Shown in pieces: positions 20,152 to 57,674 of a stretch of 64,000 bases of DNA; within the stretch, counting starts at the first letter, position 1; each line of letters begins with the position of its first letter. The notes beneath the pieces are model-generated. The model made no database searches, had not been told where the DNA came from, and saw nothing but the letters and a program-made list of their open reading frames with translations. Position numbers and translations under genes: made by a program. Origin of the DNA: an uncultured Candidatus Saccharibacteria bacterium (GTDB lineage: Bacteria > Patescibacteriota > Minisyncoccia > Phycocordibacterales > UBA2163); NCBI GenBank assembly GCA_964626705.1, contig CAZVGL010000003.1, positions 6,543 to 70,542 of the forward strand, read 5' to 3'.

Positions 20152-20198
20152 CTCCTAATAGTACCGTAAAATAAGAAATGGGTCAAAAACAACAAAAA

Positions 20199-20238
20199 AT
20201 TAACGGCTCAACCTTACATCTGTAAGGTTGAGCCGTTA
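20199..20238 (-). terminator. Rho-independent terminator (TTAACGGCTCAACCTTACA/TGTAAGGTTGAGCCGTTAA) ending the sensory/surface gene block
   Basis: 19-bp perfect stem. The A-run on the plus side gives a U-run on the minus transcript. Confidence 0.65.
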
Positions 20239-20262
20239 ATTTTTCACTAGTATAAATAGTTT

Positions 20263-20637
20263 TTATTCTGCTAATCTCTCTTTAACTATTCTTACGAGAT
20301 CGTCTACTTTTGTTTTATCTTTTACTAAATAAGTATATACTCCACCTTCCATAGCATCAGCTATCTTATTAATATCACTTACTATTGATAATACGATAAT
20401 ATTTAAATCTTTATACTTATCGTTTTCTCGAATTTTTTTGAGTATCTCTATTCCATTTATTTTTGGAAGCAATATATCAAGAAGTATTAGATCAATATTT
20501 TCTGATTCTATTAGGCTCAGACCTTCTTCTCCATCAGATGCATGTAGAACATTAAAACCAGCTTCAGAAAGTGACTCTATAAGCATTTTTGATAATATCT
20601 CTTCGTCTTCTATAACTGCTATTGTCTTTTTCTCCAT
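20263..20637 (-). CDS. Stand-alone response-regulator receiver (CheY-like) protein
   Basis: Receiver-domain signatures (acidic pocket DEE, phospho-acceptor in ILLDILLPK, conserved K). No output domain. Confidence 0.8.
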   Translation of the reverse strand: MEKKTIAVIEDEEILSKMLIESLSEAGFNVLHASDGEEGLSLIESENIDLILLDILLPKINGIEILKKIRENDKYKDLNIIVLSIVSDINKIADAMEGGVYTYLVKDKTKVDDLVRIVKERLAE

Positions 20638-20646
20638 AATCCTAAA

Positions 20647-22354
20647 TTAATTAATATCTTTTAATTCTTCACTGATATTTTTCTTTATTCTAATCGTAGT
20701 ACTCTTGATCTTTTTGACCAGATGTTCGATCTCTTGTTTCGGACTATCTTTAAGTTTGGTATCTTTAAGCCACTCTTCAAGACCGGTTACATCATTTGAC
20801 AACATTGTCGTAAATTTATCTATATCCCTTGCTACCACGATTTGATACGCATTACGTTTTTTTTGATTTTCAACGTATCTAAGCAAAACAACACTGATAC
20901 CAGACACCACAAGAAGTATAACAAACAAGAGTATTTCAAACCACCCTATGTCTAAAAAGCCAACAGAAAGGATTATTTTACCTTTTATTTTAAAAGTCTG
21001 AGCTTCTGTCGGAAAACTGACAGCTCCACGCTCATCCCTAGCATTAACCTGTAGAGAATACTTACCAAAAGAAAGAGGTTCTTCTACTATTATTTCCCAG
21101 TTACCAAGCTCATCGCTCAAAGTAGACCCTGTGAACAGTTCTTGATTATTTTTGTTTTTTATTGAAATATCTAGAAATATGCTCGGCATTGTCTTACCTG
21201 AAGCAAAAATGAATTCTCCTTGTGATACAGACCTTGTAATGAAATCAACAATAGGTGTCGGAAGTGGAATAATTTCAAACTCCGCATTGTCTTCTACACT
21301 ATTGCCAGCCATGTCTTTTACTCGCACAAGAAGTTGGTGTATCCCAGGTTTTTGTATAGGTAATGCAATAGTAGAGCTTGCAGATATTATTGGCCCAATT
21401 CCATCAATAAATATTTCTGTTTCAGATAATCCAGACAGAGCATCTTGCGTTTCAAATGTTATATTAGGTGTGGGATTATCACTTGCTTCATTGTCTATTT
21501 CGATTTCAAATGGAAGTGGAGCTGTCTTATCAATGGATATTTTATAATAAGCTAGTTCACCCCAACCAAGACTGTTTTTAAATTGCGCCCTTATGTACCA
21601 AATGCCTTCCTCCAAGCTTCCAAAGTTTTTTCCATTATATAATTCATCACTCTTGTCTCCTGATTTCTGGTCACGACTTTGACTTAATCTTGTTGCAACT
21701 TGAATAATATCAGGAGAGAGTTCCCAAAGCGCTATAACCTCTTCTGTGTGTGAATACCATTTTGATTGATCTGGATAAAGCTGTACTGTTATTTCTGGTT
21801 TTTCTGGCAAATCACTAGCAACGACAGCTTGTCTTACTACTTTCTGTGGTTGAACGATCGCTTCAACTACTTCTATAACAGGTGCTTGTGTAGGAGTGAT
21901 TGATTTAGTGCCAATATTTATATTTAAACCTTTTGTAGTAGATAACACATTAGTACCTTTTCCATCACTTGCTGTTATTACTGCATTTGATACAGAAATA
22001 TCTGCAGAACCTACACCTATAGCCTTAAACTTAAGTTTTAAAATCTGAAGCGAATCACCAGAAATACCCTTTGCTGTACCCCCTACGAATTGAATAGTGC
22101 CATTTTCGTTTGAGATAGTTGGCTCTTCAACCCAGAAATTAAATGCTGAATCAATTTTATTAGCATCGACAAGTTCTAATATGTTAGACGGAAATCCTAT
22201 AGTTGCTTGTGATGCATTTATACTATCACCTTCTGAGTCTATCTTTAGGTTTACCTCAAATTCTTGATTAATACCAAAATTAGAACCGCTTGTAGAAAGA
22301 TCGATAGTTGCCGCTTCTGTTAAACCAAAGTTTATAAAAAATATTACAAAAATG
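20647..22354 (-). CDS. Membrane-anchored surface protein with an N-terminal cohesin-like domain and a C-terminal TM anchor. The start codon is uncertain.
   Basis: Open frame runs from the stop at 22390-22392 to 20647 with no ATG/GTG/TTG upstream of 21948. N-terminal hydrophobic stretch LISLIFVIFFINFGL. Cohesin-like beta-sandwich pattern (FEVNLKIDSEGDSINASQATIGFPSNILELVD...ISGDSLQILKLKFKAIGVGSADISV). C-terminal TM ILLFVILLVVSGISVVLL. Confidence 0.5.
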
Positions 22355-22372
22355 AGTGATATTAAATATGTA

Positions 22373-24079
22373 TTAAATACTAAATGCTCTTAAAAAGATA
22401 CTAAAATCTGATATATTAATAATTCCGTCACCGTCTAAGTCAATCTTTGACTTAAGATCTGACTTTTCAGACCCCCATCTAAACAAAAATATACTCCAAT
22501 CAGTAATACCTATCTTACTATCACTATTAAAATCAGCTGACGGAATACTTAATTCGTTTAGTTTAAATGTTCGTGATATTGAAAAATTACTAATCTTTGA
22601 TTCTGTTGCAGAGCTTGCTATTTGTCGTGCACGAACTGCATGACTTCCTACATTTAAATCATCTGTATCAATACTAAATTCATAGAAACCTTCTGTATTT
22701 GATGTAGTTTCTTTTTTTGTATCACTTATCTCTAATTCTACAATATTATTTGGTGCTGCGTAACCTAAGATATGCACATTTGCTCCTTTTTTTATAATAC
22801 TGTTTTCAAACCCAACTGTAGGGGGCATAAAGATATCCTCTACCACTAAATCTTCTGTGGCAAGATTAACATTAAAAGACATTATTCCAGTCTTCCTTCC
22901 ATCTTTGTCCTCAACCCTTAATGCTATTAGGTAGTCGGCTCCAAGTAATCCAAGGTGAAGTATTGAAAAAGTACCATCATCACTTACTACCGACTCTTCT
23001 ATAGGAATATTTTTATAAAGATCATCGAGTGAACCTTTTCTCAAAACCTCTATTTTACTTTTTGGATATGCTTGTCCTGACAGATGGATCTTACTTGCAG
23101 AGACTCCACCACCACCTGTTGGTATAGATATAGTTGGCTCTTCTGCTTCAGCTGAAGTCGATAAACTTGGTACATTAGATATAGCAGATTCGTTTGGCAC
23201 CTCATCGGAAGTTTTGATAGCAAAATAATATGTTGTGTCAGAACTTAGTCCAGTCACCGTCATTGACTCACTTGATCCAGCTACAGATGGTGTAGGTTCA
23301 CCTGTTGCTTCTGTAGCAGATGCCCAATTACCATCGTTAATAGTAGCTGTTGAATATCGTATGTCATAACTTGTAGCAGTACCAGATCCCGCATCATCAC
23401 CTGGAGCAGTCCAATCCAGATCAATTGTAGTTTCTGTGGCGCCAGATGTTGCTAGATCTGAAACTGCTGATGGCGCTGTGGTGTCAGATGCTGGAGTATA
23501 TGTTATTACAGCAGATATTTGACTAACTCTTGAAATTTTAGATGAGTTATTAGTCACACCGATCTCTATATCGGTACTACCACTCTTTACAATACTTAAA
23601 CCTGTATGAGATTGTGTTGTTTCCGCATATGAAGTGCCTGGAGAGATATCAACTCCAGAGTTTGTACATGATGCATCTACACATTTTCTTGTTTGTATTT
23701 TTGCACCACCTTGTTGCCTGTCAGCACAAATAGTTATATCGATTTGTGTAATTGTCGCATCGTCTGGGACGCTAGATTCATCTATATCAAATGTCTGATT
23801 CGCACCATTTGTACCCGTAGTTATATACGAAGTATCTCCATCGCTATTACTACAACTTCCACCAGAGGATTCATCAACTTCCGTATAACAAGTGGTAGAA
23901 TTACACGCAGTTCCGCCTGTATTTGTCCAATTTGCACTATCATTACCGCCGTCAGTAGTTGGACGTAATGTGCTTGTGGTATCCGCAAACACAACACTAA
24001 ATACAGAGATAGAAAAAACAACAAGAAAAATTAACAAAACTTCCCTATTAGTTTTTTTAGAGATAAAACTCTTAAGCAT
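22373..24079 (-). CDS. Secreted multidomain protein with FN3 and Ig-like domains and a C-terminal dockerin-like repeat pair
   Basis: Signal/TM region at the N-terminus. FN3 signature (DLDWTAPGDDAGSGTATSYDIRYS...TYYFAIKTSDE). C-terminal Ca-binding repeats ADFNSDSKIGITDWSIFL and DLDGDGIINISDFSIFLRAF matching the dockerin DxDxDGxIN..D consensus. Confidence 0.6.
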   Translation of the reverse strand: MLKSFISKKTNREVLLIFLVVFSISVFSVVFADTTSTLRPTTDGGNDSANWTNTGGTACNSTTCYTEVDESSGGSCSNSDGDTSYITTGTNGANQTFDIDESSVPDDATITQIDITICADRQQGGAKIQTRKCVDASCTNSGVDISPGTSYAETTQSHTGLSIVKSGSTDIEIGVTNNSSKISRVSQISAVITYTPASDTTAPSAVSDLATSGATETTIDLDWTAPGDDAGSGTATSYDIRYSTATINDGNWASATEATGEPTPSVAGSSESMTVTGLSSDTTYYFAIKTSDEVPNESAISNVPSLSTSAEAEEPTISIPTGGGGVSASKIHLSGQAYPKSKIEVLRKGSLDDLYKNIPIEESVVSDDGTFSILHLGLLGADYLIALRVEDKDGRKTGIMSFNVNLATEDLVVEDIFMPPTVGFENSIIKKGANVHILGYAAPNNIVELEISDTKKETTSNTEGFYEFSIDTDDLNVGSHAVRARQIASSATESKISNFSISRTFKLNELSIPSADFNSDSKIGITDWSIFLFRWGSEKSDLKSKIDLDGDGIINISDFSIFLRAFSI

Positions 24080-24100
24080 TGATTAAATTATATCAAAAAA

Positions 24101-24132
24101 GCAATAATCATGTACATGATTATTGCTTTTTT
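24101..24132 (-). terminator. Terminator hairpin (GCAATAATCATGtaCATGATTATTGC + T-run) after the receiver gene, followed by a GATATAAT box 8 nt before the dockerin-protein ATG
   Basis: Perfect 12-bp stem read directly. The -10-like box is at about 24090-24097 on the minus strand. Confidence 0.6.
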
Positions 24133-24162
24133 ATCCACAGTTAGATTATAAAAATAATTTTA

Positions 24163-24618
24163 CTATTTTTCTTTTTTTATCTCCTTTACTTCATCTGCAA
24201 GAGATATTGGTTTTTCTTCTGCTTGTTCAGCTTCAGGATGAGATTCTTTTTCAAAGAATACTTTTACTTTATCAATAATCTCAGATACTGCATGCTGAGA
24301 CTTTACAATATAATCATTTGCACCAAGCTTTAGTCCTTTTTTTATATCTTCGTCACTTCCAAGCATTGTAAGCATTATTACAGGAATATCTTTTGTAACA
24401 GGAGATTTTTTTAATCCTTCTAATACCTCAAATCCTCCTTTTTTAGGCATTAGTACATCAGAAAGTATAAGATCTGGTTTTTTGGACTGAGCTAATTCAA
24501 GTCCTTTTTCACCATCATTTGCTTCTGATACCTCAAAACCAGCTTCTTTAAGCTCTTCATGTATAACTTTTGACAATATTTTGTCGTCTTCAATAAGTAA
24601 AATTTTAATTTTAGTCAT
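24163..24618 (-). CDS. Stand-alone receiver-domain protein with a short acidic C-terminal tail
   Basis: Receiver fold (LLIEDD...DLILSDVLMPKKGG...K). 151 aa, no DNA-binding domain. Confidence 0.8.
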   Translation of the reverse strand: MTKIKILLIEDDKILSKVIHEELKEAGFEVSEANDGEKGLELAQSKKPDLILSDVLMPKKGGFEVLEGLKKSPVTKDIPVIMLTMLGSDEDIKKGLKLGANDYIVKSQHAVSEIIDKVKVFFEKESHPEAEQAEEKPISLADEVKEIKKEK

Positions 24619-24631
24619 AATTTATAATATC

Positions 24632-25012
24632 TTAATTATCTTTAAGTATACCACAAACTCTATCTATAATACCCTTCATCGTGTGATGTGATTTAAGCAA
24701 TGCGTCTGCAGCGCCCATTTTCATAGTTTCTTCAAGTTTTTCTTCATTTGCACTTACTGTAAGGATAACCACGGGAATATTTTTTGTAGAATCGTCAGCT
24801 TTTAATTCTTTTAATACTTCAAAGCCATCTTTTTTAGGCATAAGTAAATCAAGAAGCACTATATCTGGTTTTTGGGATCTAATTAGCTCTAACCCTTTCT
24901 CTCCATCAAATGCTTGGTATACCTCGCACCCTTCTTCTCGAAGTTCATCAGACAACATTCCTGATAATAATCCGTTATCTTCGACTAAAACAATTCTTTT
25001 CTTATCGTCCAT
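24632..25012 (-). CDS. Stand-alone receiver-domain protein (CheY-like)
   Basis: Receiver fold (VLVEDN...DIVLLDLLMPKKDG...K). 126 aa. Confidence 0.8.
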   Translation of the reverse strand: MDDKKRIVLVEDNGLLSGMLSDELREEGCEVYQAFDGEKGLELIRSQKPDIVLLDLLMPKKDGFEVLKELKADDSTKNIPVVILTVSANEEKLEETMKMGAADALLKSHHTMKGIIDRVCGILKDN

Positions 25013-25054
25013 AGTTATAATTTAATTATATATAATACAATTGATAATAACACA

Positions 25055-27547
25055 CTATAGCAAATCTTTCCCGCCCTCACTCTTTTTTATTTCAATAGGT
25101 AGTTCAATGTAAAATGTAGTACCTTTACCTTCATGCGAGATAAAGTCTATTTTGCCACCAAGTGCTTCTGTTGCACTTTTTGCTATATATAGACCAAGTC
25201 CCGTACCGTCTGTTTTTACAACTTTTGCATTGTCTGCTCTGTGGAACTTTTCAAACATTCTTGACTGCTCTTTTTCCGGTATCCCGATTCCAGTATCTTT
25301 TACTTTTATCATGACGTCACTATTTTTTTCAACACATACCTCTATAGATCCAGATTCTGGAGTATATTCTATTGCATTGGACACTATAGACTGTATTACA
25401 TTGCGCAAAACTTTTGGATCACTTTTTATTTCAAAATTATCTGGATGATCTTCAAATTTTAATGTTATATTCTTTTTTACCAAAAGTGGTGTTAATTCTC
25501 CTAAATAATCTTCAATGAATTTTATTAGGTCTAATTTTTCTGGTGTTACAGCAACACCTCCTCCGCTTTCAATCCTAGAAACGTTAAGTAAAGAGTCTAC
25601 AAGTTCTGACAACCTCACAGATGAAGTGTGTAGATCTTTAAGGTATTCTTTCCCTTGATCACTTAGACCAATTTCTTTTTTCAAAAACCTTTCGATCACC
25701 CATTGTATACCAGTCATAGGTGTACGAAGTTGATGCGATGCTACAGATATAAATTCACTTTTCGCACGGTCTATCTCTCTTTCTTTTGTTATATCTCTAA
25801 ACACTACAATACAACCAGTAACATTTCCGTTCTTATCTTTAAGTGGGGCCGCACTATCCGCTACTGGTATTTTCCTCCCATCTCTTTGTATCAACATTGT
25901 ATTAGATGGCATCTTTTGGTTTGTACCAGTACTCATTACATCCTCGATGAACTCAGTATTTATTTTTGTAGGATCTTTTTCATCTATAAATTTAAGTATT
26001 TTATTGTACGGCTTGCCTATAACTTCACCTCGTTTAAACCCTGAAATCTTCTCTGCTTGGGAGTTAAATACGATAATATTACGATTTCTATCTACTACAA
26101 ACACACCGTCGCCAATGTTGTGTAGAATAGAACTAACTTTTTCTTCTTCAAGGTCTGCTTTATCTTTCTCATCTTTTATATCTTCAAGAATATTAAGTAT
26201 GGCCATCTGCTGTGTCTCAAGTTTTCCCTTTTGATCCGTAATATTGTCAGTTTGATCATTAACCTTTTTTTCAATATTTCCACGCGAATCTTTTATAGAT
26301 GCTGCCATATTATTGAACGAATCACCCAACTTCCCTATTTCATCTACAGAATCAATGTTAACCCTATAGTCCAAATCTCCTTTTTCTAAAATTTTAGTAC
26401 CTTCATAAAGTTTTTCAATTGGCCCTGATATTTTCCTAGAAATAAAATATGCAAATATTATTATCAGAAACAAAGATCCAAAACTAATAAGGATCAGAGT
26501 ATTCCTTAAGTTTGTAACAGGCGCCAATATTACTTCCCTAGGTATTATTTCAAATATCACAAAGAAAGACTCATCACTAAAACTGCTTGGAAACACTTGT
26601 TTATAAGCAATAGCGTGATTATGTTTTGGCATATCAACAGAGTCAGCACCACCAGATAGAATGATGTCTGCCATTCCAGATTGTAGATTATTACTAATAT
26701 TATGCCCCGTATTTAAATCCCCTTCATTTCCCCACTCCTTATCCTTTTGTGGATGTGCAATATAAAAACCTCTTTCATCTACAATAAATTTACCTACATT
26801 ATCATAATCAATATCATTCTCTTTATAAGAATGCTTAAATTCATTTAGAAAACTATCAGCATTTATATTTGTTATTACAACCCCCTTTCTATTACCACTA
26901 TTGTCAAATATTGGTGTAGCATACCTTATTGTTGGCTTAAAAGGCGATTCTATCTCTGCCAAAATACCCTCTCTATTAAGATCTAACGGAGATACAAAAA
27001 TATTACCTCGGTCTAGTTTCATAGTATCTTTAAAATAATATCTATTAGCTTTGTTTTGTAGATTTTCTATTGAAATGATTTCGGCAGCACCATCTCTAGA
27101 ATCTACACGCACAAGCTCATTTCCATTTTCATCCAAATACCTTATTTGCATATATGCCTTATTGGATGAGGCTATTTCCATAAATATAGTTCCAAGTCTT
27201 GATGTCCATTGTTCATAAGTTGACACACCTTCAGTATCAATACCATTATTTTTATTTGCACGTATTATTCCTTGAATTGGTGGCACACCACCTAAAAACA
27301 AGACCTCTCTTTCTAGACCACTTAACACCTGATTTATCTTGTTCACATGTTGATCTACATCAACTTCAAGTTCACTCAATGTCTTGTCGAGCAGTATATT
27401 ACTTGATGAATAGAAACTAAAAAACCCAGACGTAATAAGTGGTATTATTGCAACTACTAAAAACGTAAAAAGTAATTTTCTATTTATGGAACTAAAGAAA
27501 AAATTCCTTAAGGCTAAACGTAGTTTTTTGTAGACTTTTTTTGGCAC
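25055..27547 (-). CDS. Sensor histidine kinase with a double-Cache-like periplasmic domain, HAMP, PAS, HisKA and HATPase domains
   Basis: Two TM segments flank a roughly 300-aa extracytoplasmic domain. HAMP motif (GDLDYRV...DEIGKLGDSFNNM). PAS region. H-box SHQLRTPMTGI. G-boxes DTGIGIP / GTGLGL. Confidence 0.85.
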   Translation of the reverse strand: MPKKVYKKLRLALRNFFFSSINRKLLFTFLVVAIIPLITSGFFSFYSSSNILLDKTLSELEVDVDQHVNKINQVLSGLEREVLFLGGVPPIQGIIRANKNNGIDTEGVSTYEQWTSRLGTIFMEIASSNKAYMQIRYLDENGNELVRVDSRDGAAEIISIENLQNKANRYYFKDTMKLDRGNIFVSPLDLNREGILAEIESPFKPTIRYATPIFDNSGNRKGVVITNINADSFLNEFKHSYKENDIDYDNVGKFIVDERGFYIAHPQKDKEWGNEGDLNTGHNISNNLQSGMADIILSGGADSVDMPKHNHAIAYKQVFPSSFSDESFFVIFEIIPREVILAPVTNLRNTLILISFGSLFLIIIFAYFISRKISGPIEKLYEGTKILEKGDLDYRVNIDSVDEIGKLGDSFNNMAASIKDSRGNIEKKVNDQTDNITDQKGKLETQQMAILNILEDIKDEKDKADLEEEKVSSILHNIGDGVFVVDRNRNIIVFNSQAEKISGFKRGEVIGKPYNKILKFIDEKDPTKINTEFIEDVMSTGTNQKMPSNTMLIQRDGRKIPVADSAAPLKDKNGNVTGCIVVFRDITKEREIDRAKSEFISVASHQLRTPMTGIQWVIERFLKKEIGLSDQGKEYLKDLHTSSVRLSELVDSLLNVSRIESGGGVAVTPEKLDLIKFIEDYLGELTPLLVKKNITLKFEDHPDNFEIKSDPKVLRNVIQSIVSNAIEYTPESGSIEVCVEKNSDVMIKVKDTGIGIPEKEQSRMFEKFHRADNAKVVKTDGTGLGLYIAKSATEALGGKIDFISHEGKGTTFYIELPIEIKKSEGGKDLL

Positions 27548-27567
27548 TTTAATTTTTAAAATTTAAT

Positions 27568-27864
27568 TTAGAAAACACCCCAATAACTATATACGCCAGC
27601 TTCTTCGGACTCAATCCTGATTTGAAAAGATGATTTTATATGAATAAATTCATCATAGAAATCCAAGATATGCTCCCTTATGGCTCCTTCATCTTTGTAT
27701 TTATCCATAAAACCGATTACGATATTTTCTATATCACGCATCTCAGAAATAAACTTTTCTGTATTAGATGTATCAGTACCTCTTTCTTTCATATCTTTTA
27801 CAAGCTCAATATAAAACACCTCATCTTCTAATTTTACATGTGACGTAAAATTACTTGAAAACAT
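27568..27864 (-). CDS. Hypothetical protein (98 aa); the preceding 35-codon ORF at 27900-28008 carries a hemerythrin-like GQHNTL motif
   Basis: Coding-like composition. Only a weak resemblance to hemerythrin; the fragment may be decayed. Confidence 0.25.
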   Translation of the reverse strand: MFSSNFTSHVKLEDEVFYIELVKDMKERGTDTSNTEKFISEMRDIENIVIGFMDKYKDEGAIREHILDFYDEFIHIKSSFQIRIESEEAGVYSYWGVF

Positions 27865-28012
27865 ATTAAGACTTATAAGAATATTCGAGGCATTCTCAAT
27901 CTTTTTTTTCTTTGGAAAAGTCTAAAATCGTATCAACATTTTTCCTTAAAGTATTATGTTGACCCATCAACTTCTCAATAAGATCTTTTTTTTCTTTTAT
28001 AATCATAGTTAT

Positions 28013-29338
28013 TTATAATTTATTATCTTCGATTTTAGTCTCTAGGTCAACTATCTTCTTTTTTAATTCTATCATCTTGATCTCTCTTCCTGCCATAGCG
28101 CTAGAGACTTCTTGTGCTTGCTTCACCGCAACCTCTGCTTGCTCCTGTCTTTTTGTAATCTCTTTTGTTTGTTCCTTTATTTTACGATCAACATCTTTTC
28201 TTGACTCTTTTATTGCAATAATCATCTTATCAAAAGATCGAGCAAGTCCACCTATCTCATCCTTAGAGTCACTATTTATTTTATAACTTAAATCTCCACC
28301 CTCAACCTTTTTTACAGCATCTTGAAGATCTCTTAGCGGTTTCATAAATAAAGATATTAAATAAGTCAGAGACATTATTGCAAAAAGTGCAGCGATCAGC
28401 ACAAACCCACTTAAAATATATGCAAGATTATACGAAGAAGAGACAGCTTCTTCAACATTTCTACTGATGATTAGAAAAAATGGATATTCTTCAACCTTAA
28501 CCATGCTAGCAATCTCACTCTTTTTATCCATATCATCATAAATTTCGAATGTTTGCGTGTCATTTATGGTGTATATATTTTGTTGTAATAAGTCATAACC
28601 AAGTGGCTTTATGTCTATTCCTGAAAATCTCCTACCCTCCTCTAGAATCTTTTGCTCCTTAACACCTAACTGTCCGAGACTACTAAATAGTCTATTCTCT
28701 TTATTAGAAAAGATTACTACACCATAATTATCCGTCATCATTACCTGAAGATCTTCCTCGCTTCTACGCGTAGAGACAGAGTTAGAAATCACCTCTGGTT
28801 TTAATTTAGTAACAGCTACCCCAACAATTTGACCATCCTTATTCTTCACAGGATGAGCAAAATAATATCCAAGCTTGCTACTTGTAACACCTAAGACAAC
28901 ATCTGTTGTAAATTTCCCAGTTAGAGCATTTTTGAAGTAATTTCTAAATCCATAATTTTTTCCTACAAAACTTTCATCCGTAGATGCAACAGTGGTACCA
29001 TCTGGAAGCATTAAGTATATTGCAGAATATATATCTCCAATATTATGCTCCTGTAGCTCTTGAAGTATATAGAGCTCTTGATGTTCTTCTGCTCCAGAAT
29101 CCATATATTCTACAACCTCTTCACGTTGAGATATATTTTTCACAGTAAGACTAATCTGATTGAGTATTTGCGTTGTATTGTGAGCAATACCTGAAGATAA
29201 AATATTTAAATCTTGCTCTGACCTTTCCCTAATCTCATTTCTTGAATAGAAAAATACGGAAACAACAGCCAACCCACCGAAAACAAAGATAATAAGTGTT
29301 ATAGATAGAATTATTTTATTTTTTAATGAAATCTGCAT
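28013..29338 (-). CDS. Membrane sensor-like protein with a Cache-like extracytoplasmic domain, TM, HAMP and a C-terminal coiled-coil but no output domain
   Basis: HAMP motif GDLSYKINSDSKDEIGGLARSFDKM, paralogous to the HAMP of the kinase at 25055-27547. The C-terminal motif AGREIKMIELKKKIVDLE is shared with 30206-31501. Confidence 0.6.
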   Translation of the reverse strand: MQISLKNKIILSITLIIFVFGGLAVVSVFFYSRNEIRERSEQDLNILSSGIAHNTTQILNQISLTVKNISQREEVVEYMDSGAEEHQELYILQELQEHNIGDIYSAIYLMLPDGTTVASTDESFVGKNYGFRNYFKNALTGKFTTDVVLGVTSSKLGYYFAHPVKNKDGQIVGVAVTKLKPEVISNSVSTRRSEEDLQVMMTDNYGVVIFSNKENRLFSSLGQLGVKEQKILEEGRRFSGIDIKPLGYDLLQQNIYTINDTQTFEIYDDMDKKSEIASMVKVEEYPFFLIISRNVEEAVSSSYNLAYILSGFVLIAALFAIMSLTYLISLFMKPLRDLQDAVKKVEGGDLSYKINSDSKDEIGGLARSFDKMIIAIKESRKDVDRKIKEQTKEITKRQEQAEVAVKQAQEVSSAMAGREIKMIELKKKIVDLETKIEDNKL

Positions 29339-29349
29339 TGTAACTTTTT

Positions 29350-29766
29350 TTAAGACAAACCATTGTCAGTGAATGTTTCTATATACCCCATATCTTCATT
29401 TAAGATGTGGCCAATCCACCAATCTTCTAAGAAATCTAACACTTCAAAGAGAAAGCTCGTCATTGCCCCATCTCCCAGAGTATTAATTTTTTCTTGAAAT
29501 TCTCCTATTTTTGTCCTGTAACTATTGTGACTTTCCTTATGCTTATCAGAGTCAGCATAATTAAATTGATCAAAATACTTTTCTTCAGTCTTAAAATGAT
29601 AATTAGCATAATCATTAAGACCTCCAATCAGCTTGAGCGCTTCTTCTCTAGGTCCATTGTTTTTAATAAGCTCGTCCATAGCATTTAAGAATCCAAACAA
29701 CTTCTGATGCTGTTCATTGATCTCTTTAACCTTTACACTATATTCTTCTTTCCATTCTAATTTCAT
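29350..29766 (-). CDS. Bacteriohemerythrin (single-domain hemerythrin-like protein)
   Basis: MKLEWKEEY...INEQHQKLF N-terminus. HF(K)TEE...H...H and FLEDWWIGHILNEDMGY match the H/HxxxE/HxxxH/HxxxxD diiron ligands. Confidence 0.75.
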   Translation of the reverse strand: MKLEWKEEYSVKVKEINEQHQKLFGFLNAMDELIKNNGPREEALKLIGGLNDYANYHFKTEEKYFDQFNYADSDKHKESHNSYRTKIGEFQEKINTLGDGAMTSFLFEVLDFLEDWWIGHILNEDMGYIETFTDNGLS

Positions 29767-29774
29767 ATTATCTA

Positions 29775-30191
29775 TTACACTAATCCGTTATCATTAAATG
29801 TTTTTGTATACTCTTTATCTTTATGTAAGATATGTCCCACCCACCAGTCCTCAAGAAAATCTAACATTTCAAATGCTAGCTTGATCGCATCACCACCGTT
29901 TAACTCAGCTACTTTTTTCTCAAAATCTATTACCTTATCCATATAGTCATGGTGACGTTTTTTATGATCTTCTTTGTCCTCATAATCAAACTGGTCAAAG
30001 TACTTTTCTTCTGTTGCAAAATGAAACTTTGCATAGTCATTTAAGTTGTCTATCGTAGCAGTTAATCCTTCTTTTGCATTATCTGAATGAGTTGAATTAT
30101 CAAGTTCATTAATAAAACCTATAATTTTTTTATGTTGATTGTTTATTTCTTCAACACCAACACCATATTCTTCTTTCCATTCTAATTTCAT
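29775..30191 (-). CDS. Bacteriohemerythrin (tandem paralogue)
   Basis: MKLEWKEEYGVGVEEINNQHKKII...HFATEEKYF...HHDY...DWWVGHILHKDKEY, the same ligand pattern as the neighbouring gene. Confidence 0.75.
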   Translation of the reverse strand: MKLEWKEEYGVGVEEINNQHKKIIGFINELDNSTHSDNAKEGLTATIDNLNDYAKFHFATEEKYFDQFDYEDKEDHKKRHHDYMDKVIDFEKKVAELNGGDAIKLAFEMLDFLEDWWVGHILHKDKEYTKTFNDNGLV

Positions 30192-30205
30192 ATTATTTTA
30201 TTAAA

Positions 30206-31501
30206 TTAATTATTATTTTTGTCTTTTAAATCAGCGATCTCTTTCTTGAGTTCAATCATCTTTAACTCCCTACCTGTCATAGCATCGTTCATAGCCTCTG
30301 CGCGCTCTATTGCATTATCAGCTTCTTTTTTCTTCTCTAAGACCACTTCTGTTTGTTCTTTTACTTTTTGGTCGATCTCTCTTTGTGATTTCTTGATAGC
30401 TAATGTCATTTTATCAAATTCCCTAGACAAGTCACCTAATTCATCTTTATATGTAGTACCTACTTTATAATTTAAATCTCCTTTTCCTATGATACTTGCC
30501 CCTTCGCTTAATACCCTTATCCTTCTAGATAAAAAATTAACAAGATATATACTTAAGAATATTGTTACGAAAAGTATTCCAACCATACCAAGCACTGCAA
30601 ATTGCAGTTTTTTATTTATCTCTTTTTTCAATAAGTCAGCCCTCTTTATAATATCAACCAGTATTTTATTAGCGGTGTCTTGCATCAGATCAATTCTAGC
30701 TGTCGCAGACAGAAACCAATGTAAGGCATCTATATTAAAGTCTTCAGTTCTTGAAAATGCAATTTCTCTAATACGCTCCGCTTCATTTACAGAAGGGTCA
30801 GACATCCTTTCTTTAAAGAAATCAATCTGTTCTTGGTTCGCATACCAAGTAAATGCATCAAAATATATATCCTGTGAATGAACTAGGAATAGAAACCTGG
30901 CTTCTGCACCATCACCAAACATATCTGAAGCGAAAGTGTTTGTCATTAATGCCCTTTCTTCCCCTGCTTTTTCTTTACCTTCTATAAAGATAATATATGC
31001 ATTTATATCTTCTGTTAGCTTTACGTCAGGGCTCGTCTGCGATGACACCAGTCTGACCACATCTAACATCTTACTGTTATGCTGGGTATAGAAATCTATA
31101 CCTTCAGAATCTGAAATACTAAGCCCACTTATCTGTGCTCTTAATTCAGAAAGTTTATTGTATTCTGCAAATGCAATATTAAATATATTTACAAACTTTT
31201 CTCCAAAATCTTCAGGATTAAAAGTATTTAAGAATACATCTAGACTCCTTCTTTTTACATTAGTAAGTTGCCTTTGATCACGAAGTACATCTACAAACTC
31301 TGCTCCATCACTCCCCATAAACCCTCCCGTAGCACCACGCTCTTTTTGCATTTCATGGACATACTCGCCAACCTTTGAAGATAGTTGGGACACTTGCTCA
31401 AGAGGTCTTAACTCTTTTAAAATATTTAATTGCTCTGTAATCGTAGTTACAGAAAAATACAATATAAGAATAATTGGAACGACGACCAAAACTCCAAGCA
31501 C
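30206..31501 (-). CDS. Membrane protein with an N-terminal NIT (nitrate/nitrite-sensing-type) domain, TM, HAMP and C-terminal coiled-coil, without an output domain
   Basis: NIT-like motif YVHEMQKERGATGGFMGS...QRQLTN. HAMP motif GDLNYKV...DELGDLSREFDKM. C-terminal MTGRELKMIELKKEIADLK. Confidence 0.55.
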   Translation of the reverse strand: MLGVLVVVPIILILYFSVTTITEQLNILKELRPLEQVSQLSSKVGEYVHEMQKERGATGGFMGSDGAEFVDVLRDQRQLTNVKRRSLDVFLNTFNPEDFGEKFVNIFNIAFAEYNKLSELRAQISGLSISDSEGIDFYTQHNSKMLDVVRLVSSQTSPDVKLTEDINAYIIFIEGKEKAGEERALMTNTFASDMFGDGAEARFLFLVHSQDIYFDAFTWYANQEQIDFFKERMSDPSVNEAERIREIAFSRTEDFNIDALHWFLSATARIDLMQDTANKILVDIIKRADLLKKEINKKLQFAVLGMVGILFVTIFLSIYLVNFLSRRIRVLSEGASIIGKGDLNYKVGTTYKDELGDLSREFDKMTLAIKKSQREIDQKVKEQTEVVLEKKKEADNAIERAEAMNDAMTGRELKMIELKKEIADLKDKNNN

Positions 31502-34147: not shown

Positions 34148-37100
34148 TTATTTACCTTTCCCTGGCCAACGGTTGTAAAGTAGTGGAACTAAGAGAAGTG
34201 TTATGATAGAAGCAAACGATAGCCCAAAGATTATAGCAAATGCAAGTGGGCTCCAAAGGTCAGATGCATAAGTAAGGGGGATAATTCCAATCACTGTAGT
34301 CAAACTTGTAAGTACAATAGGACGAAGTCTTGAGGCTGACCCTTCTATTACGATGTCACGCAAACTCATATTATGAGTTTTGCCACTTTCTTTTCTTAGA
34401 TTATTAATAACGTCAATCAAAATGATGGCATTGTTTACTACGATACCAGAAAGTGCGATGTAACCCATCATAGATGGGAACGACAAAGCTTTACCAGATA
34501 TAGCAAGTCCCGTAAAGATTCCTATTAAAGAAAGTGGCACTATTGCTATAATAAATATCGCATGCCTAAATGAATTAAACTGAAGCACTAGTATAGAGAT
34601 CACCAAAAGCATACCTATTATAAGTGCTACGAACATATCTCTAAAAGACTGATCTACATCTTCACTTTCTCCACCTACTTTATAAGTCACACCCTCGACA
34701 AGACCCACTTCATTAATCCTTTCTTTAAATTCTTTTACTATATCTCCAGCGACGGCACCATCTGCAACCTCACTAGATACAGATTCATACCTATTAAGCT
34801 CTTCATGACGTATAAGTGCGGGACTTTTTTCTATTGATGTAGTTGTGAGTGACCCAAGCAGAACAGGACCATTTGGTGTTTGTATCTCGATCTGTCGTAT
34901 AGTATCCATTGTAGTTTTTGAAGTATCATGTGGAGTCCTATAGTTATTATTTAGATTAAGTTTTACTTGCACATCGATATCCTCCCCATCTTTATGTATA
35001 GTAGTCGCTGTTGCACCATGAATAGCAACACGCAAAGTCTGCGCAATAGTACCAAGATCAAGACCAACTTCCGCTATCTTTGCTCTATCTACACGCATAA
35101 CAAACTCTATATTGTCTCCTAATATACTCGTCTCAACTTCTCTTGTGCCGTCAATATTTTTTAAGAGTTTTTTAGCACTCTCTGCAGCACGTTCAAGATC
35201 GTTCAGATCATCACCAAAGAATTGTATAAATACCGGTGCACCTGTAGGAGGACCTTCATCTGCTTGGAGTATTCTTATCTCAGCATTTCTTATAGCACGA
35301 AATTCTTTTCGTAATTCTTCTGAAATAACAGTACTGGTTTTATCTTTTTTACTTTTCAGAACTGCTGTAATGTTTGCAAGCCTTCCGCTTCCCTGCCCAC
35401 CATCACCTCCAAAATCACTAGACGCACCAACTGTAGTTACAAATGATTCTATGTTTGGTCGTGTATATAATATCTCTTCGACAGCTCGTACTGACAGGTC
35501 GGTTTGTGAGAGCTCTGTCCCTTGAGGCCTTTCAACTTCAACAAATATAAAATCAGAATCTTCTTGTTCGAAGAAAATAGTTTTGACCACACCAGTTATC
35601 GGAAGAGCAAGCGCTACTATAAACAAGACAATTAGAATTATAAAAAACCATCTTTCTCTTATTTTATTTCCTAATAGACTACGGAGTATTTTCTTATACC
35701 ATTCTTTTATTTTTGAGGTATAAACCTCTTGTTTTTCTTCAAACGCACTTACCCCTCTTTTTTTCAAAGCTTTAGCTGAAATAAGAGGTATTATTCCAAG
35801 TGCTACAAAAAGTGAAGCTATAAGCACAAATATAATAGTAAAAGGTATGCCAGCTATAAATTCCCCTGTAACACCTGATATGAAAAATAGTGGTGCAAAC
35901 ACGGCAATAGTCGTCATCGTACCCGAAGTCAGAGGCCAATGAAACTCTTTTATAGTTTTACGAGCGGCATCTTTTCCTACCAAACCTTCACGCATATTTG
36001 TATGAGTACCTTCTGTTACCACGATCGCTGAATCTACTAAGATACCCACTGCTAAAATAAGAGAAAAGAGACTTATAAAGTTTATAGTATTGCCTGTGAC
36101 TTGAAGCCCGACAAACCCTATGAGAAAAGAAAGTGGTATAGCAAGCCCTGCAATAAGAGCTTCTCGCCAACCTATAGCTATAAATAGAATAACCATAACA
36201 AGTATTATCGTCTGAAGACCTGTGAACGAAAGTGTCCTTAAGTCGTCTTTTACAAACTCTCCAGTATCAAGAGCTACAAGTACTGTTGTATTCATAAGCA
36301 CACTATCATTCTGCAGCTCTGCTAACTTTTCCCTTACACTTCCAGCTATCTTTGTAATATCTCCACCTCTTTTCTTAAATACTGAAAACGTCACGGCTTG
36401 TTCTGATGGAGCACCATCAATACTGATCCTTGAAAATGTAGTCGTCTTACTTACACCATCTGACACAAAAGCAACATCTCGAACATAGATCGGTTGCCCA
36501 TCTGAAGTACCTATTACCATATTCGCAATCTCTGAAGTTTCTTTTATATCTCCTTGAAACTTCACAGAGTACTCAATACCATCGAGCGTGATTCCTCCAA
36601 TAGGAAGTGAGGTGTTTGAAAGAGATAATGCTCGCACTACATCCACAAGTCGTACACCAAACTTATGTAACTGAGTTTTGTTTACTATCACTTGTACTTC
36701 ACGGTCTTGTATTCCACTTTTTATAACTTTCGATACTCCTTTTACACTTTTAAGCTCATCTACTGTATCCTCTGCAAGCTCTATAAACTTAGTAACCGGC
36801 AGATCACTTGCAATAGATACTAGCATTATCGGCTGATCGACAAAGTTAACCTCAGACACAAAGGGATCCTCTGCATCAGTTGGTAATTCTCTTTTTATTT
36901 TTTCTACTTCATCTTTTACTTCTCGTACAGAATCGTCAATATCAGCATCCGCATTAAACTCAGCGATAACAACAGACACACCTTCTCGTGATATTGAAGT
37001 TATTTTATTTAATTCATCAAGATTATTATTTAAAGCCTCTTCTATTTCATTTGTTATGAGTTCTTCTACATCTTCAGCTCCTGCACCTGGGAATATAGTA

Positions 37101-37246
37101 GTAGTGATAGCAATAGGTATTTGCACTTCAGGGGATGACTCTTTTGGTATTATTATAACTGAAAAAATACCAAAAATAACAAGCGCCACTATGAGTAGTA
37201 GACTAAAGCTTGATTTCTTTAGAAAAAAATTCCAGATATTTATCAT
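34148..37246 (-). CDS. RND-superfamily efflux transporter permease (AcrB/HAE-like, 12 TM with two large loops)
   Basis: 1032 aa. Two blocks of about 6 TM helices each preceded by large hydrophilic loops. Conserved GxxxD TM4 region. Confidence 0.8.
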   Translation of the reverse strand: MINIWNFFLKKSSFSLLLIVALVIFGIFSVIIIPKESSPEVQIPIAITTTIFPGAGAEDVEELITNEIEEALNNNLDELNKITSISREGVSVVIAEFNADADIDDSVREVKDEVEKIKRELPTDAEDPFVSEVNFVDQPIMLVSIASDLPVTKFIELAEDTVDELKSVKGVSKVIKSGIQDREVQVIVNKTQLHKFGVRLVDVVRALSLSNTSLPIGGITLDGIEYSVKFQGDIKETSEIANMVIGTSDGQPIYVRDVAFVSDGVSKTTTFSRISIDGAPSEQAVTFSVFKKRGGDITKIAGSVREKLAELQNDSVLMNTTVLVALDTGEFVKDDLRTLSFTGLQTIILVMVILFIAIGWREALIAGLAIPLSFLIGFVGLQVTGNTINFISLFSLILAVGILVDSAIVVTEGTHTNMREGLVGKDAARKTIKEFHWPLTSGTMTTIAVFAPLFFISGVTGEFIAGIPFTIIFVLIASLFVALGIIPLISAKALKKRGVSAFEEKQEVYTSKIKEWYKKILRSLLGNKIRERWFFIILIVLFIVALALPITGVVKTIFFEQEDSDFIFVEVERPQGTELSQTDLSVRAVEEILYTRPNIESFVTTVGASSDFGGDGGQGSGRLANITAVLKSKKDKTSTVISEELRKEFRAIRNAEIRILQADEGPPTGAPVFIQFFGDDLNDLERAAESAKKLLKNIDGTREVETSILGDNIEFVMRVDRAKIAEVGLDLGTIAQTLRVAIHGATATTIHKDGEDIDVQVKLNLNNNYRTPHDTSKTTMDTIRQIEIQTPNGPVLLGSLTTTSIEKSPALIRHEELNRYESVSSEVADGAVAGDIVKEFKERINEVGLVEGVTYKVGGESEDVDQSFRDMFVALIIGMLLVISILVLQFNSFRHAIFIIAIVPLSLIGIFTGLAISGKALSFPSMMGYIALSGIVVNNAIILIDVINNLRKESGKTHNMSLRDIVIEGSASRLRPIVLTSLTTVIGIIPLTYASDLWSPLAFAIIFGLSFASIITLLLVPLLYNRWPGKGK

Positions 37247-37248
37247 AT

Positions 37249-38859
37249 TTATTTTATTACAACCTCTTGTCCACTATCGAGCCCTCTAGCATCAAGAACG
37301 ATCTTCATGTCAGAAGTTATGCCTGAGAAAATAATGATCCCGTTGCCTACGATTGACCCAACAGATACAGGGTGTTCTATAAGTTTATTTTTTCCTCCAC
37401 CTAAAGGCAGTGCATCATCCACCGTAAACACAAAAATGCCATCTGTCTTTATCTTAAGAGAGGAGATCGGTACTATTATTTCTTTTGTACCATCATCAAC
37501 TACAAACGATCTTTCTACTTTTAGTTCTACAGACTCACCTTCTATAAAATCTGTCTCTGGGTCGACAATAGCCACTTTTAACTCTATCTTTTTGGTTTTT
37601 TTATCAAGCGCTGGTGCAACTTCAGATACTACTCCATCAAATCGGTCTTCTATAAGAGCTTTTGCGCCAACTATAATAGTTTTTTTATCATCTTCTGTTA
37701 TAAAAGATGTTATTTCAAGTGCATCGGAGTTTGATATAACTACAGCAGATTCAAATACTGAAACAAAATCCCCATTTTCAATATCAATATCGTTTATTGT
37801 TCCAGAAATAGGAGACCTTATAATAGTCTTTTCAAGACCTGATTGAGCTTGCCTTAATGCGCCTTGTGTTTGCTTTAATGCTGCTTGAGCTACTAATACA
37901 TCCTCTTCTCTACCACCAGCAAATCCTTCTTCTTGCTGTTTTTTTGCAATATCATATGAAGCAATCTTATTATTTAGATTATCTTTTGCAGAAGAAATGT
38001 CTGAAAGCGATGTATTGACACTTGTACGTGCTCCAAGTACCGCAGCTTTCCATGTATCGATCGTAGTCTGACTAAGATTTGTATTTGGTGTAAGTGAGTT
38101 TACAGCAGAAGCAGAATCATCAAGAAAATCTTTTATAAGAATAAGATTATTTTTTGCTTTTTCTAAAGAGATAAATAAGTCGTCATCTATAGCTATCTCA
38201 CCAAGCTCATCACTCCATAAGTCGAGCATATTCTCAATAGTAAAACGTCCAGACTCTATATCTGTTTCAAGCTGAGAATTAGTACTAACAAAAGAAAGCT
38301 GTGGATTAGTACCTGAAGGATTACTAAAGAATTGATCAACCTTATTACGCACCGCATCATCTGCAGCTCCTAATTCACTTTGCAAAGTATTAATAGTTGA
38401 TTGCTTTGCTTCCTCCAAAAGATCTTCGGCTTGATGAAGCTTTAATTCAAGGATTGATATTTGTTCTGAACGTGATCCAAGACGCGTTTTTGTAAGAGTT
38501 GCTTCTGCTGATTCTACCGCACCTTGTGCAGTAAGTACGGCTGCACGTTGTGAAGAATTTTCAATTTCTGCGATTATTCTTCCTGCATGTACAAAATCTC
38601 CAACTTCAGCATAAACACCTACAACCTTTCCAGAAACTTCTGTTTTCACTGTTACCTCATTTTCAGATGTCACCTCTCCGACAAGAGGAAGTGGAATACC
38701 TGTTTCTTGAAGACTTTTTATAGATATAAGACTAACCTCTTTCACAACATCAGTATCTAAGTCATCACCGTTTGACCCATTACGTGACAAAAGAGTAAAG
38801 CCAGCGACTGCTCCTAAAACAATTAAAATAAGTAGTGTTATAAGTATTTTTTTAAACAT
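37249..38859 (-). CDS. Efflux adaptor / membrane-fusion protein (HlyD/AcrA family) with a long coiled-coil
   Basis: N-terminal TM, lipoyl/beta-barrel-like segments flanking about 200 aa of coiled-coil. Gene abuts the RND permease. Confidence 0.7.
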   Translation of the reverse strand: MFKKILITLLILIVLGAVAGFTLLSRNGSNGDDLDTDVVKEVSLISIKSLQETGIPLPLVGEVTSENEVTVKTEVSGKVVGVYAEVGDFVHAGRIIAEIENSSQRAAVLTAQGAVESAEATLTKTRLGSRSEQISILELKLHQAEDLLEEAKQSTINTLQSELGAADDAVRNKVDQFFSNPSGTNPQLSFVSTNSQLETDIESGRFTIENMLDLWSDELGEIAIDDDLFISLEKAKNNLILIKDFLDDSASAVNSLTPNTNLSQTTIDTWKAAVLGARTSVNTSLSDISSAKDNLNNKIASYDIAKKQQEEGFAGGREEDVLVAQAALKQTQGALRQAQSGLEKTIIRSPISGTINDIDIENGDFVSVFESAVVISNSDALEITSFITEDDKKTIIVGAKALIEDRFDGVVSEVAPALDKKTKKIELKVAIVDPETDFIEGESVELKVERSFVVDDGTKEIIVPISSLKIKTDGIFVFTVDDALPLGGGKNKLIEHPVSVGSIVGNGIIIFSGITSDMKIVLDARGLDSGQEVVIK

Positions 38860-43242: not shown

Positions 43243-43352
43243 TAAGAATATTGTAACATCTTTTATAAGAAATCCTTCGCAATATGTACCACAAAAACCA
43301 AACGACTCGATCATATGATCGAGTCGTTTAATTCTATACTCTTATATACTAA

Positions 43353-57639: not shown

Positions 57640-57674
57640 TCCTTATATAGTATCAAAAGTGATAGAATAAACAA

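Follow-up and report, generated by a model that had tools for sequence, protein, structure and literature searches.

Introduction

Several bacterial sensor histidine kinases are regulated by an additional protein in what are called three-component systems: RetS and LadS act on GacS, NreA on NreB, YycH and YycI on WalK, and UhpC on UhpB. Here we describe an 11-kb block of genes from an uncultured Candidatus Saccharibacteria bacterium, in which two membrane sensors with no kinase core (co-sensors 1 and 2) are encoded together with a histidine kinase and three receiver proteins. Both co-sensors end in a conserved C-terminal helix, the tail, which places the block in a large and conserved type of operon that seems to be uncharacterised so far. 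The block occupies positions 31501 to 20263 of a stretch of 64,000 nucleotides (contig CAZVGL010000003.1 of assembly GCA_964626705.1), called the window throughout. As in the three-component systems, a separate sensory protein would here modulate a kinase by contact, with several inputs and one phosphorylation output. The accessory proteins of the window differ in being paralogous to the kinase's own sensor-transmembrane (TM)-HAMP-S-helix half, and in having a dedicated, near-invariant C-terminal helix that in relatives is joined to PAS and receiver inputs. We know of no such tail in the known three-component examples. Crosstalk between GacS and RetS is treated in PMC12148439.

The segment that follows HAMP in these proteins resembles the S-helix, a helical segment with an ERT signature that is presented as part of signalling proteins with several domains, sensor kinases and guanylyl cyclases among them (PMC1592074, Anantharaman, Balaji and Aravind 2006). 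Unlike the S-helix as presented there, it leads here into a conserved helix of about 25 residues that ends the protein. Its signature is EQT, EQT and DQT in the window proteins and ERT in most of their relatives (read by eye). The transmembrane receptor AF1503 of Archaeoglobus fulgidus, which provided the first solved HAMP structure, has no output domain. The co-sensors are comparable to it as membrane receptors that end shortly past HAMP with no recognisable enzymatic or DNA-binding output, whereas they run on through the S-helix into the GRELKMIELKKEI tail, and the similarity is limited to HAMP (PDB, E 0.03-0.4).

Hemerythrins are coupled to signalling in the DcrH chemoreceptor of Desulfovibrio and in Bhr-DGC of Vibrio cholerae. 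A relative of the co-sensors in which the tail is fused to a hemerythrin-like domain (P0073) resembles these in having a di-iron module as a putative C-terminal O2/redox sensor, whereas the hemerythrins of the window are separate 138-aa proteins, and neither methyl-accepting chemotaxis protein (MCP) nor GGDEF outputs are present. Single-domain receivers, PilG and PilH, control type IV pili in the Chp system of Pseudomonas. Effector-less receivers are likewise encoded with PilB, PilC and pilin genes in many loci related to the block, but CheA, CheW and MCP are missing, the phosphoryl donor would be a HisKA kinase, and the neighbours in the window are a putative dockerin/cohesin pair instead of pili. 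That pair, a dockerin-type repeat on a secreted protein beside a cohesin-type domain on a membrane-anchored neighbour, recalls the cellulosome. Unlike cellulosomes, the locus has no glycoside hydrolases, the two window proteins fall under the Pfam thresholds, and the anchor has a conserved cytoplasmic tail, with a receiver gene downstream of its own.

Genomes of bacteria of the candidate phyla radiation (CPR) and of DPANN archaea measure about 1 Mb, and both groups presumably spend their lives attached to host cells. Environmental sensing is barely discussed for either group; two-component systems, kinases and sensors go unmentioned in a 2024 perspective on Patescibacteria biology, and a groundwater study found CheY-like genes to be twice as frequent in sediment-attached ultra-small metagenome-assembled genomes (MAGs; PMC9938205).

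Results

The co-sensors end in a conserved tail

The co-sensors, the kinase and the receivers of the block are the following, all on the minus strand:

30206-31501, minus strand: co-sensor 1, 431 aa; TM segment, extracytoplasmic NIT domain, TM segment, HAMP, S-helix (EQT) and tail, with no kinase core (Pfam)
30209-30340, minus strand: C-terminal tail module of co-sensor 1 (...ERAEAMNDAMTGRELKMIELKKEIADLKDKNNN; alignments A1 and A3)
28013-29338, minus strand: co-sensor 2, 441 aa; TM segment, dCache_1, TM segment, HAMP, S-helix and tail, with no kinase core (Pfam)
25055-27547, minus strand: sensor histidine kinase, 830 aa; TM segment, dCache, TM segment, HAMP, S-helix (DQT), 'AILNILEDIKDEKDK' helix, PAS, HisKA and HATPase_c (Pfam)
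26150-26215, minus strand: 'LNILED' helix of the kinase, between S-helix and PAS (motif)
24632-25012, minus strand: receiver 1, 126 aa, single domain (Pfam Response_reg, E 6e-23)
24163-24618, minus strand: receiver 2, 151 aa, receiver with an acidic C-terminal extension (Pfam Response_reg, E 6e-26)
20263-20637, minus strand: receiver 3, 124 aa, single domain (Pfam Response_reg, E 6e-23)

In co-sensor 1, Pfam NIT (PF08376) matched residues 48-284 with an E value of 1.4e-45 (157 bits against a cut-off of 24.9), hydrophobic segments were readable on either side of this domain, and Pfam HAMP was also present; its orthologues P0002 and P0003 are 66-68 % identical to it. The two co-sensors share 41 % identity from TM2/HAMP to their ends, and their HAMP/S-helix region is 38 % identical to that of the kinase. 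The original prediction had both proteins stop after a coiled-coil. Instead, both terminate in A-M-x-G-R-E-[LI]-K-M-I-E-L-K-K-[EK]-I, the tail starting at aa 410 of 431 in co-sensor 1 (GRELKMIELKKEI) and at aa 417 of 441 in co-sensor 2 (GREIKMIELKKKI). Both thereby fit the signature of a family defined by a near-invariant [GDN]RELKMIELKKEI helix at most about 30 residues from the C-terminus and by the lack of a kinase core.

Over about 40 residues the consensus of the tail is ...ELExxNxxMxGRELKMIELKKEIxxLK; in alignments A1 and A3 the R, E, M and K are invariant, and the G, L, K, I, E, L, K, E, I and L are at least 90 % conserved. Homologues retrieved with the NIT protein, about 100 proteins of 280-460 aa, had the same tail 8-25 residues from the C-terminus behind varying sensor domains (dCache, 4HB_MCP, CHASE4, dCache_2 and NIT). 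When a 41-column tail profile (A3) was run against 1.84 billion cluster representatives, 14,418 were matched at E<=1e-3 and 675 at E<=1e-10. The pattern [GD]RELKMIE was also run over genomes, one for each species, and matched at more than 599 sites; 80 loci were fetched, and all counts of loci given here are over 79 of them. The tail was located at the extreme C-terminus in 99 of 120 homologues and in 93 of the 97 tail open reading frames (ORFs) in the fetched loci. Among the best 140 library matches, no more than 30 residues followed the motif in 126, and the remaining ones had short, domain-free extensions (...LGxPPRY...).

A kinase core was found in none of the 241 tail proteins collected, and none of the 97 tail ORFs of the fetched loci was labelled as a kinase; PAS was present in 21 of the 241 and a receiver domain upstream of the tail in 3. 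Conversely, a NIT-HAMP protein 43 % identical to co-sensor 1 (P0004) is fused to HisKA-HATPase and has no tail. The tail thus behaves like an output module, since it stands where a kinase core would be and occurs with a wide range of input modules. In P0289, P0301 and P0384, an N-terminal receiver, with or without PAS, precedes the GRELKMIELKKEI tail, which is the sole 'output' of these response regulators.

No Pfam or NCBIfam model matched the tail, and neither its motif strings nor an output-less HAMP family were described in the literature searched, which extended to HAMP proteins of CPR bacteria and to pilus regulators of Saccharibacteria, so the large family that it defines is apparently uncharacterised. 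The JGI label of these proteins, methyl-accepting chemotaxis protein, rests on HAMP only.

Kinase and receivers

The kinase was recognised by Pfam through dCache/HK_sensor, HAMP, PAS, HisKA (5.7e-16) and HATPase_c (1.7e-28). The histidine of its H-box, SHQLRTP, is residue 605, and the LNILED helix (AILNILED) begins at aa 449. An acidic pocket, an acceptor Asp (D55 in receiver 1, followed by T and K), Thr/Ser and Lys were readable in all three receivers, which consist of Response_reg only (124-151 aa). As judged from these residues, the locus has the HisKA kinase and the receivers of a classical two-component system, and all three receivers lack the DNA-binding or enzymatic effector domain of one. 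They would thus act by binding partners. NCBIfam matches of the block proteins to named kinases were partial, at the level of HAMP and far under the respective cut-offs.

Searches of every ORF of the block with Pfam and NCBIfam yielded neither a DNA-binding nor a GGDEF/EAL, MCPsignal, CheA or CheW domain, and likewise no Hpt domain or DNA-binding regulator. The block is therefore not a chemotaxis pathway, as MCPsignal, CheA and CheW are all missing. The domain assignments of the original prediction (NIT, HAMP, hemerythrins, dCache, kinase and receivers) and its claim that a classical output domain is absent from the block agree with these searches; its description of the receivers as orphan does not, because they are encoded beside a kinase.

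In a neighbour-joining (NJ) tree, a crude one with no support values, receiver 2 grouped with the receivers located between the kinase and the fn3 gene in loci L009, L010, L034 and L047, and receiver 3 with the receivers at its own position in L009, L010 and L047. No positional orthologue of receiver 1 was found in the related loci.

Genomic context of the tail family

The fetched loci came from many lineages of Patescibacteria, including Saccharibacteria, from DPANN archaea (Woesearchaeota, Aenigmatarchaeota and Nanoarchaeia), from Omnitrophota, and in a few cases from Methanophagales and Thermoplasmata. A kinase core was encoded at most 3 kb from the tail gene in 65 of the 79 loci (82 %), and kinases made up 68 of 433 ORFs within 3 kb as compared with 5 of 589 farther away (odds ratio 22, p 2e-21); in the other 14 loci the fetched DNA held no kinase. 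Single-domain receivers were present in 58 of the 79. The usual order was one or more tail genes, in some cases a gene for a hemerythrin or an NMT1-type binding protein, a kinase of about 800 aa, a receiver and sometimes a second receiver.

The kinases that adjoin tail genes have a further feature in common. Just after their HAMP/S-helix, 53 of 70 carried the LNILED motif ([QRK]xA[ILVMT]LN[ILV][LM]EDVxEEK), which corresponds to 53 of the 65 kinase-containing loci, archaeal ones included, and to 58 of the 65 with a relaxed pattern. Four LNILED kinases had no TM segment. Two of these soluble kinases (L062:10470-11693 and L073:10991-12301) start almost at the LNILED helix, directly after a tail-bearing membrane sensor, as if one kinase had been divided into a sensory and a catalytic part.

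The complete order of the block, co-sensor, (hemerythrin), kinase, receiver of about 150 aa, fn3/dockerin gene, cohesin/Big_13 anchor and receiver of about 124 aa, recurred in L009, L010 and L047, and was partly kept in L034, in L086 and on the contig of P0003, the 66 % identical orthologue (gene order taken from its gene table). No fetched locus contained homologues of the housekeeping genes that flank the block in the window, so the internal order is kept in differing neighbourhoods. Conservation of the gene order in relatives, a check suggested with the original prediction, is borne out by these loci; rather than standing alone, the locus turned out to be an elaborated member of an operon type that is very widespread in Patescibacteria and DPANN archaea. 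In one relative, two full kinases stand at the place of the co-sensor and kinase of the window.

Type IV pilus genes, confirmed by Pfam, were present in 29 of the 79 loci (PilB in 23, PilC in 21 and pilin-like genes in 26), where the operon lies within or beside a pilus cluster. The strings receiver-PilB-PilC-pilin and tail gene-kinase-receiver-PilB-PilC were recurrent, and in L067 a homologue of the fn3/dockerin protein lies inside a pilus cluster. Seven co-sensor/kinase loci also encode a conserved protein of about 107 aa with no Pfam match (YGVDL...ITP.MVRDA...CF.QAHC; for example L019:10123-10452, L074:8994-9314, L028:1725-2048 and L076:15802-16152).

Hemerythrins

Between the co-sensor and kinase genes of the block lie three hemerythrin-type genes:

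29775-30191, minus strand: bacteriohemerythrin 1, 138 aa (Pfam Hemerythrin, PF01814; NCBIfam NF033749, 117 bits against 84)
29350-29766, minus strand: bacteriohemerythrin 2, 138 aa (Pfam Hemerythrin; NCBIfam NF033749, 113.5 bits against 84)
27568-28006, minus strand: third hemerythrin-like (HHE) gene, split into ORFs of 36 and 98 aa (three-frame translation)

The first two proteins are 53 % identical, and the iron-ligand motifs H, HFxxEE, HxxxH and HxxxxD were readable in both. The third gene consists of a 36-aa ORF (28006-27896) and a 98-aa ORF (27864-27568), separated by a frameshift at a run of eight adenines (A8, 27902-27909); A7 or A10 would restore the frame. The joined product of 146 aa aligned end to end with intact genes of 141-145 aa in L008, L011, L018, L028 and L069, which occupy the position between co-sensor and kinase. 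Pfam Hemerythrin covered residues 9-140 of the joined product with 24.4 bits, just under the cut-off of 25.3, and scored 29.4 on the intact L008 homologue, above the cut-off. The contig of the window was assembled independently from several samples, and five other assemblies of the strain carry the identical A8, which indicates that the break is real; the gene may be a pseudogene, or its frame may be restored by transcriptional or ribosomal slippage. The 98-aa ORF had been considered as an Hpt or anti-sigma-like protein on the strength of a weak Pfam match to Rsd_AlgQ only, and the frameshift and the hemerythrin-like homology excluded this.

Elsewhere in the family, the gene after the tail gene encodes a hemerythrin or a hemerythrin-like protein in about 10 of the 79 loci, and in P0073 the fusion is of dCache-HAMP-tail to the hemerythrin-like domain. 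Four tail proteins (L032:8281-9313, L036:8015-9362, L050:8680-9413 and L074:7571-8942) have an extra extension of about 85 aa, and each of their genes is followed by a small ORF of 66-70 aa with an IRDDE.RHM (ExxH) motif and no Pfam match; from their sequences, extension and ORF together are possibly a split ferritin-like di-iron bundle. The hemerythrin genes, the P0073 fusion and the ExxH ORFs suggest that di-iron four-helix bundles recur as partners of the co-sensors.

Surface proteins, boundaries and internal hairpin

The remaining two genes of the block and two hairpins are:

22373-24079, minus strand: secreted protein, 568 aa; signal peptide, fn3, Ig-like and C-terminal dockerin-like repeats (the fn3 match passes its Pfam threshold)
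20647-22389, minus strand: membrane anchor; signal-peptide-like segment, cohesin-like domain, Big_13/Ig, TM segment and a conserved cytoplasmic tail of about 75 aa (from homologues)
24094-24133, minus strand: AT-rich hairpin of 18 bp followed by U6, a possible internal terminator or attenuator (dG -20 kcal/mol, z -6.9)
20198-20241, minus strand: strong intrinsic terminator at the end of the block (stem of 20-24 bp, dG -36 kcal/mol, z -12)

The dockerin/cohesin identity proposed for the pair held for homologues of 45-55 % identity, in which Pfam finds these domains, whereas the window proteins themselves were below threshold or undetected. On the 568-aa protein, Pfam Dockerin_1 (PF00404) scored 18.5 bits against 22.9 and NCBIfam dockerin_GC 23 against 29, and many of its full-length homologues at about 50-55 % identity carry PF00404. 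The anchor has more than 213 homologues; among the matches listed, nine that are 44-50 % identical carry PF00963 Cohesin, and four have the NCBI name 'cohesin domain-containing protein'. Pfam Cohesin matched neither the anchor nor six homologues, and the profile search of the PDB yielded nothing better than a scaffoldin at E 0.66, so that the putative cohesin domain of the anchor is backed only by annotated homologues. This anchor is present in 7 of the 79 loci.

The canonical ORF of the anchor covers only 21948-20647 (433 aa). Its frame continues upstream to about 22389, overlapping the stop of the preceding dockerin gene by 17 nt, and the extension (21949-22389, about 145 codons) encodes a signal-peptide-like segment and a beta-rich cohesin-like domain with no ATG, GTG or TTG. 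The homologues, of 570-606 aa, aligned from residue 6-15 of the query and start with MKNIKKL, which is missing in the window; the start may be non-canonical, may depend on re-initiation, or may have been lost. The gene for receiver 3 starts 9 nt past the anchor gene.

Every ORF between 31501 and 20263 is encoded on the minus strand, and gaps of 6-83 nt separate neighbouring genes; the strong terminator predicted at the end of the block was recovered as the hairpin 20241-20198. The internal hairpin is located between receiver 2 and the fn3 gene and is overlapped by a TG-extended -10-like promoter match. A single transcription unit is not certain given this hairpin and its U6 (24133-24094); judging from the sequence, the block may be two units, a sensory half and a surface half. 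Of the earlier claim that the surface pair belongs to the same unit, the conserved gene unit is borne out by L009, L010 and L047, while the single transcript is uncertain.

Discussion

Our results are consistent with a multi-sensor two-component system in which kinase-less co-sensors act on the kinase and the output is directed to surface structures, a reading that we consider evenly balanced between right and wrong. In this model the tail would be a protein-protein output module through which the co-sensors regulate the adjacent kinase in trans, possibly by contacting the LNILED helix between HAMP and PAS. Extracellular ligands, nitrate/nitrite-like ones through NIT and small molecules through dCache, would converge on one kinase, to which the hemerythrins would add the cytoplasmic O2, redox or iron status; O2/NO and nitrate/nitrite, the ligands named in the original prediction, are candidates suggested by the domains only. 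The receivers would then bind partners at the cell surface, here the dockerin-fn3/cohesin-anchor pair with the conserved cytoplasmic tail of the anchor, and in other clades the ATPase machinery of type IV pili. The co-sensors would be modulators and not obligatory halves of the kinase, as most partner kinases have a sensor of their own. More tentatively, and with doubts that outweigh our confidence, we propose that the tail is an unrecognised output module by which a very large class of kinase-less receptors (TM, PAS or even receiver proteins) plugs into an LNILED kinase, making it a hub for several receptors that steers pili, adhesin complexes and thereby host attachment in ultra-small episymbiotic CPR bacteria and DPANN archaea.

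Several observations speak against the co-sensor model. Own sensor, TM and HAMP were present in 49 of the 53 partner kinases, so a co-sensor is not structurally required, and LNILED may co-occur with the tail only because one kinase subfamily has been inherited vertically along with its neighbouring genes. An attraction of opposite charges between a 'basic' tail and the acidic LNILED helix was considered and dropped: over 22 residues the tails have net charges of +1 and 0, close to neutral, against -5 for the kinase helix. On the output side, a strong hairpin lies between the sensory half of the block and its surface half, pilus homologues are absent from the 64-kb window, and PilB was not enriched within 3 kb as compared with 3-10 kb, its enrichment over the genome average being an estimate only. 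Two genes of the block look damaged, by a frameshift and by a missing start codon, and the system may partly be decaying here. ORF calling in the fetched loci was crude (the longest ORFs under code 11), and the labels came from phmmer searches with proteins of the window as queries.

The tail could instead bind another conserved partner, such as pilus assembly proteins, the cytoplasmic tail of the anchor or hemerythrin-type bundles, and serve a kinase-independent route that shares the operon. The fusion in P0073, the four extended tail proteins with their ExxH ORFs, the hemerythrin genes that follow tail genes in several loci, the pilus genes in 29 of the 79 loci and the 14 loci with no kinase in the fetched DNA would all fit such a partner. 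Kinase adjacency (82 %, odds ratio 22), however, far exceeds that of hemerythrin (about 10/79), pilus (29/79) or cohesin-anchor genes (7/79), many of the loci that lack a kinase lie on short or truncated contigs, and the association extends to archaea, whose surface machinery differs; we regard this explanation as distinctly unlikely. The remote-output alternative, an ordinary phosphorelay in which the receivers are sinks or intermediates, a transcription factor is encoded elsewhere and the surface genes are regulated targets or mere neighbours, strikes us as rather unlikely. In its favour, multiple receivers per kinase are typical of sink and relay designs, a terminator-like hairpin and a promoter-like site lie between the sensory and the surface genes, and receiver 1 lacks a positional orthologue in the related loci. 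Yet the block has no Hpt or DNA-binding regulator, and the receivers of the related loci are nearly all of 120-175 aa; the few longer ones are three ORFs of 220-475 aa and one hybrid of kinase and receiver. Moreover, receiver 3 keeps its place after the cohesin anchor in several genomes, and the receiver-PilB-PilC strings recur. The pilus or surface output of the original prediction accordingly fits the family, in which 29 of 79 loci have pilus genes, but a transcriptional output elsewhere in the genome is a possibility that this alternative embodies.

That the HAMP-only proteins are dead remnants of truncated kinases or chemoreceptors in a decaying block is very improbable, and the conserved tail already goes most of the way to refuting it. 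The two damaged genes (the A8 frameshift and the missing start codon), the relative with two full kinases in place of co-sensor and kinase, and the chemotaxis annotation at JGI could be taken in its favour. Random truncation is nevertheless incompatible with a tail that is near-invariant over 14,418 clusters from both prokaryotic domains and is nearly always the end of the protein, and a chemoreceptor origin finds no MCPsignal, CheA or CheW in the block.

Should the co-sensor model hold and the tail be a docking module, it would be a new part for the signal-transduction toolkit. It would also explain thousands of genes labelled 'HAMP domain-containing protein' or 'methyl-accepting chemotaxis protein', and would offer a testable path from nitrogen oxides and O2/redox cues to pili and adhesins. 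Strong selection is implied by an 11-kb sensory operon that takes up about 1 % of a genome of this kind. Saccharibacteria now have cultured, genetically tractable members, and since the family occurs in Saccharibacteria MAGs, the hypothesis can be tested experimentally.

Other features of the window

The block is flanked by housekeeping genes, upstream by those for RseP, RRF and holB, and downstream by those for a class II aminoacyl-tRNA synthetase and MreB. The topoisomerase I cluster at >=90 % identity contains a protein from a 'Parcubacteria group bacterium', and the reduced genome assumed in the original prediction is therefore reasonable. Between 297 and 57639 the minus strand encodes nearly all genes, and from 57675 onward the large genes are encoded on the plus strand. 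The strand switch (about 57640-57675) coincides with a reversal of sign in both GC and AT skew near 58 kb; the site looks like a replication origin or terminus, and no dnaA was seen. A putative efflux pump of the resistance-nodulation-division (RND) type is encoded at 34148-38859 by genes for a 1032-aa ACR_tran protein and a membrane-fusion-like protein, which surprised us, as the lineage, apparently Parcubacteria, is generally regarded as having no outer membrane. The genes for phosphoketolase (XFP) and acetate kinase are adjacent at 39788-43314.

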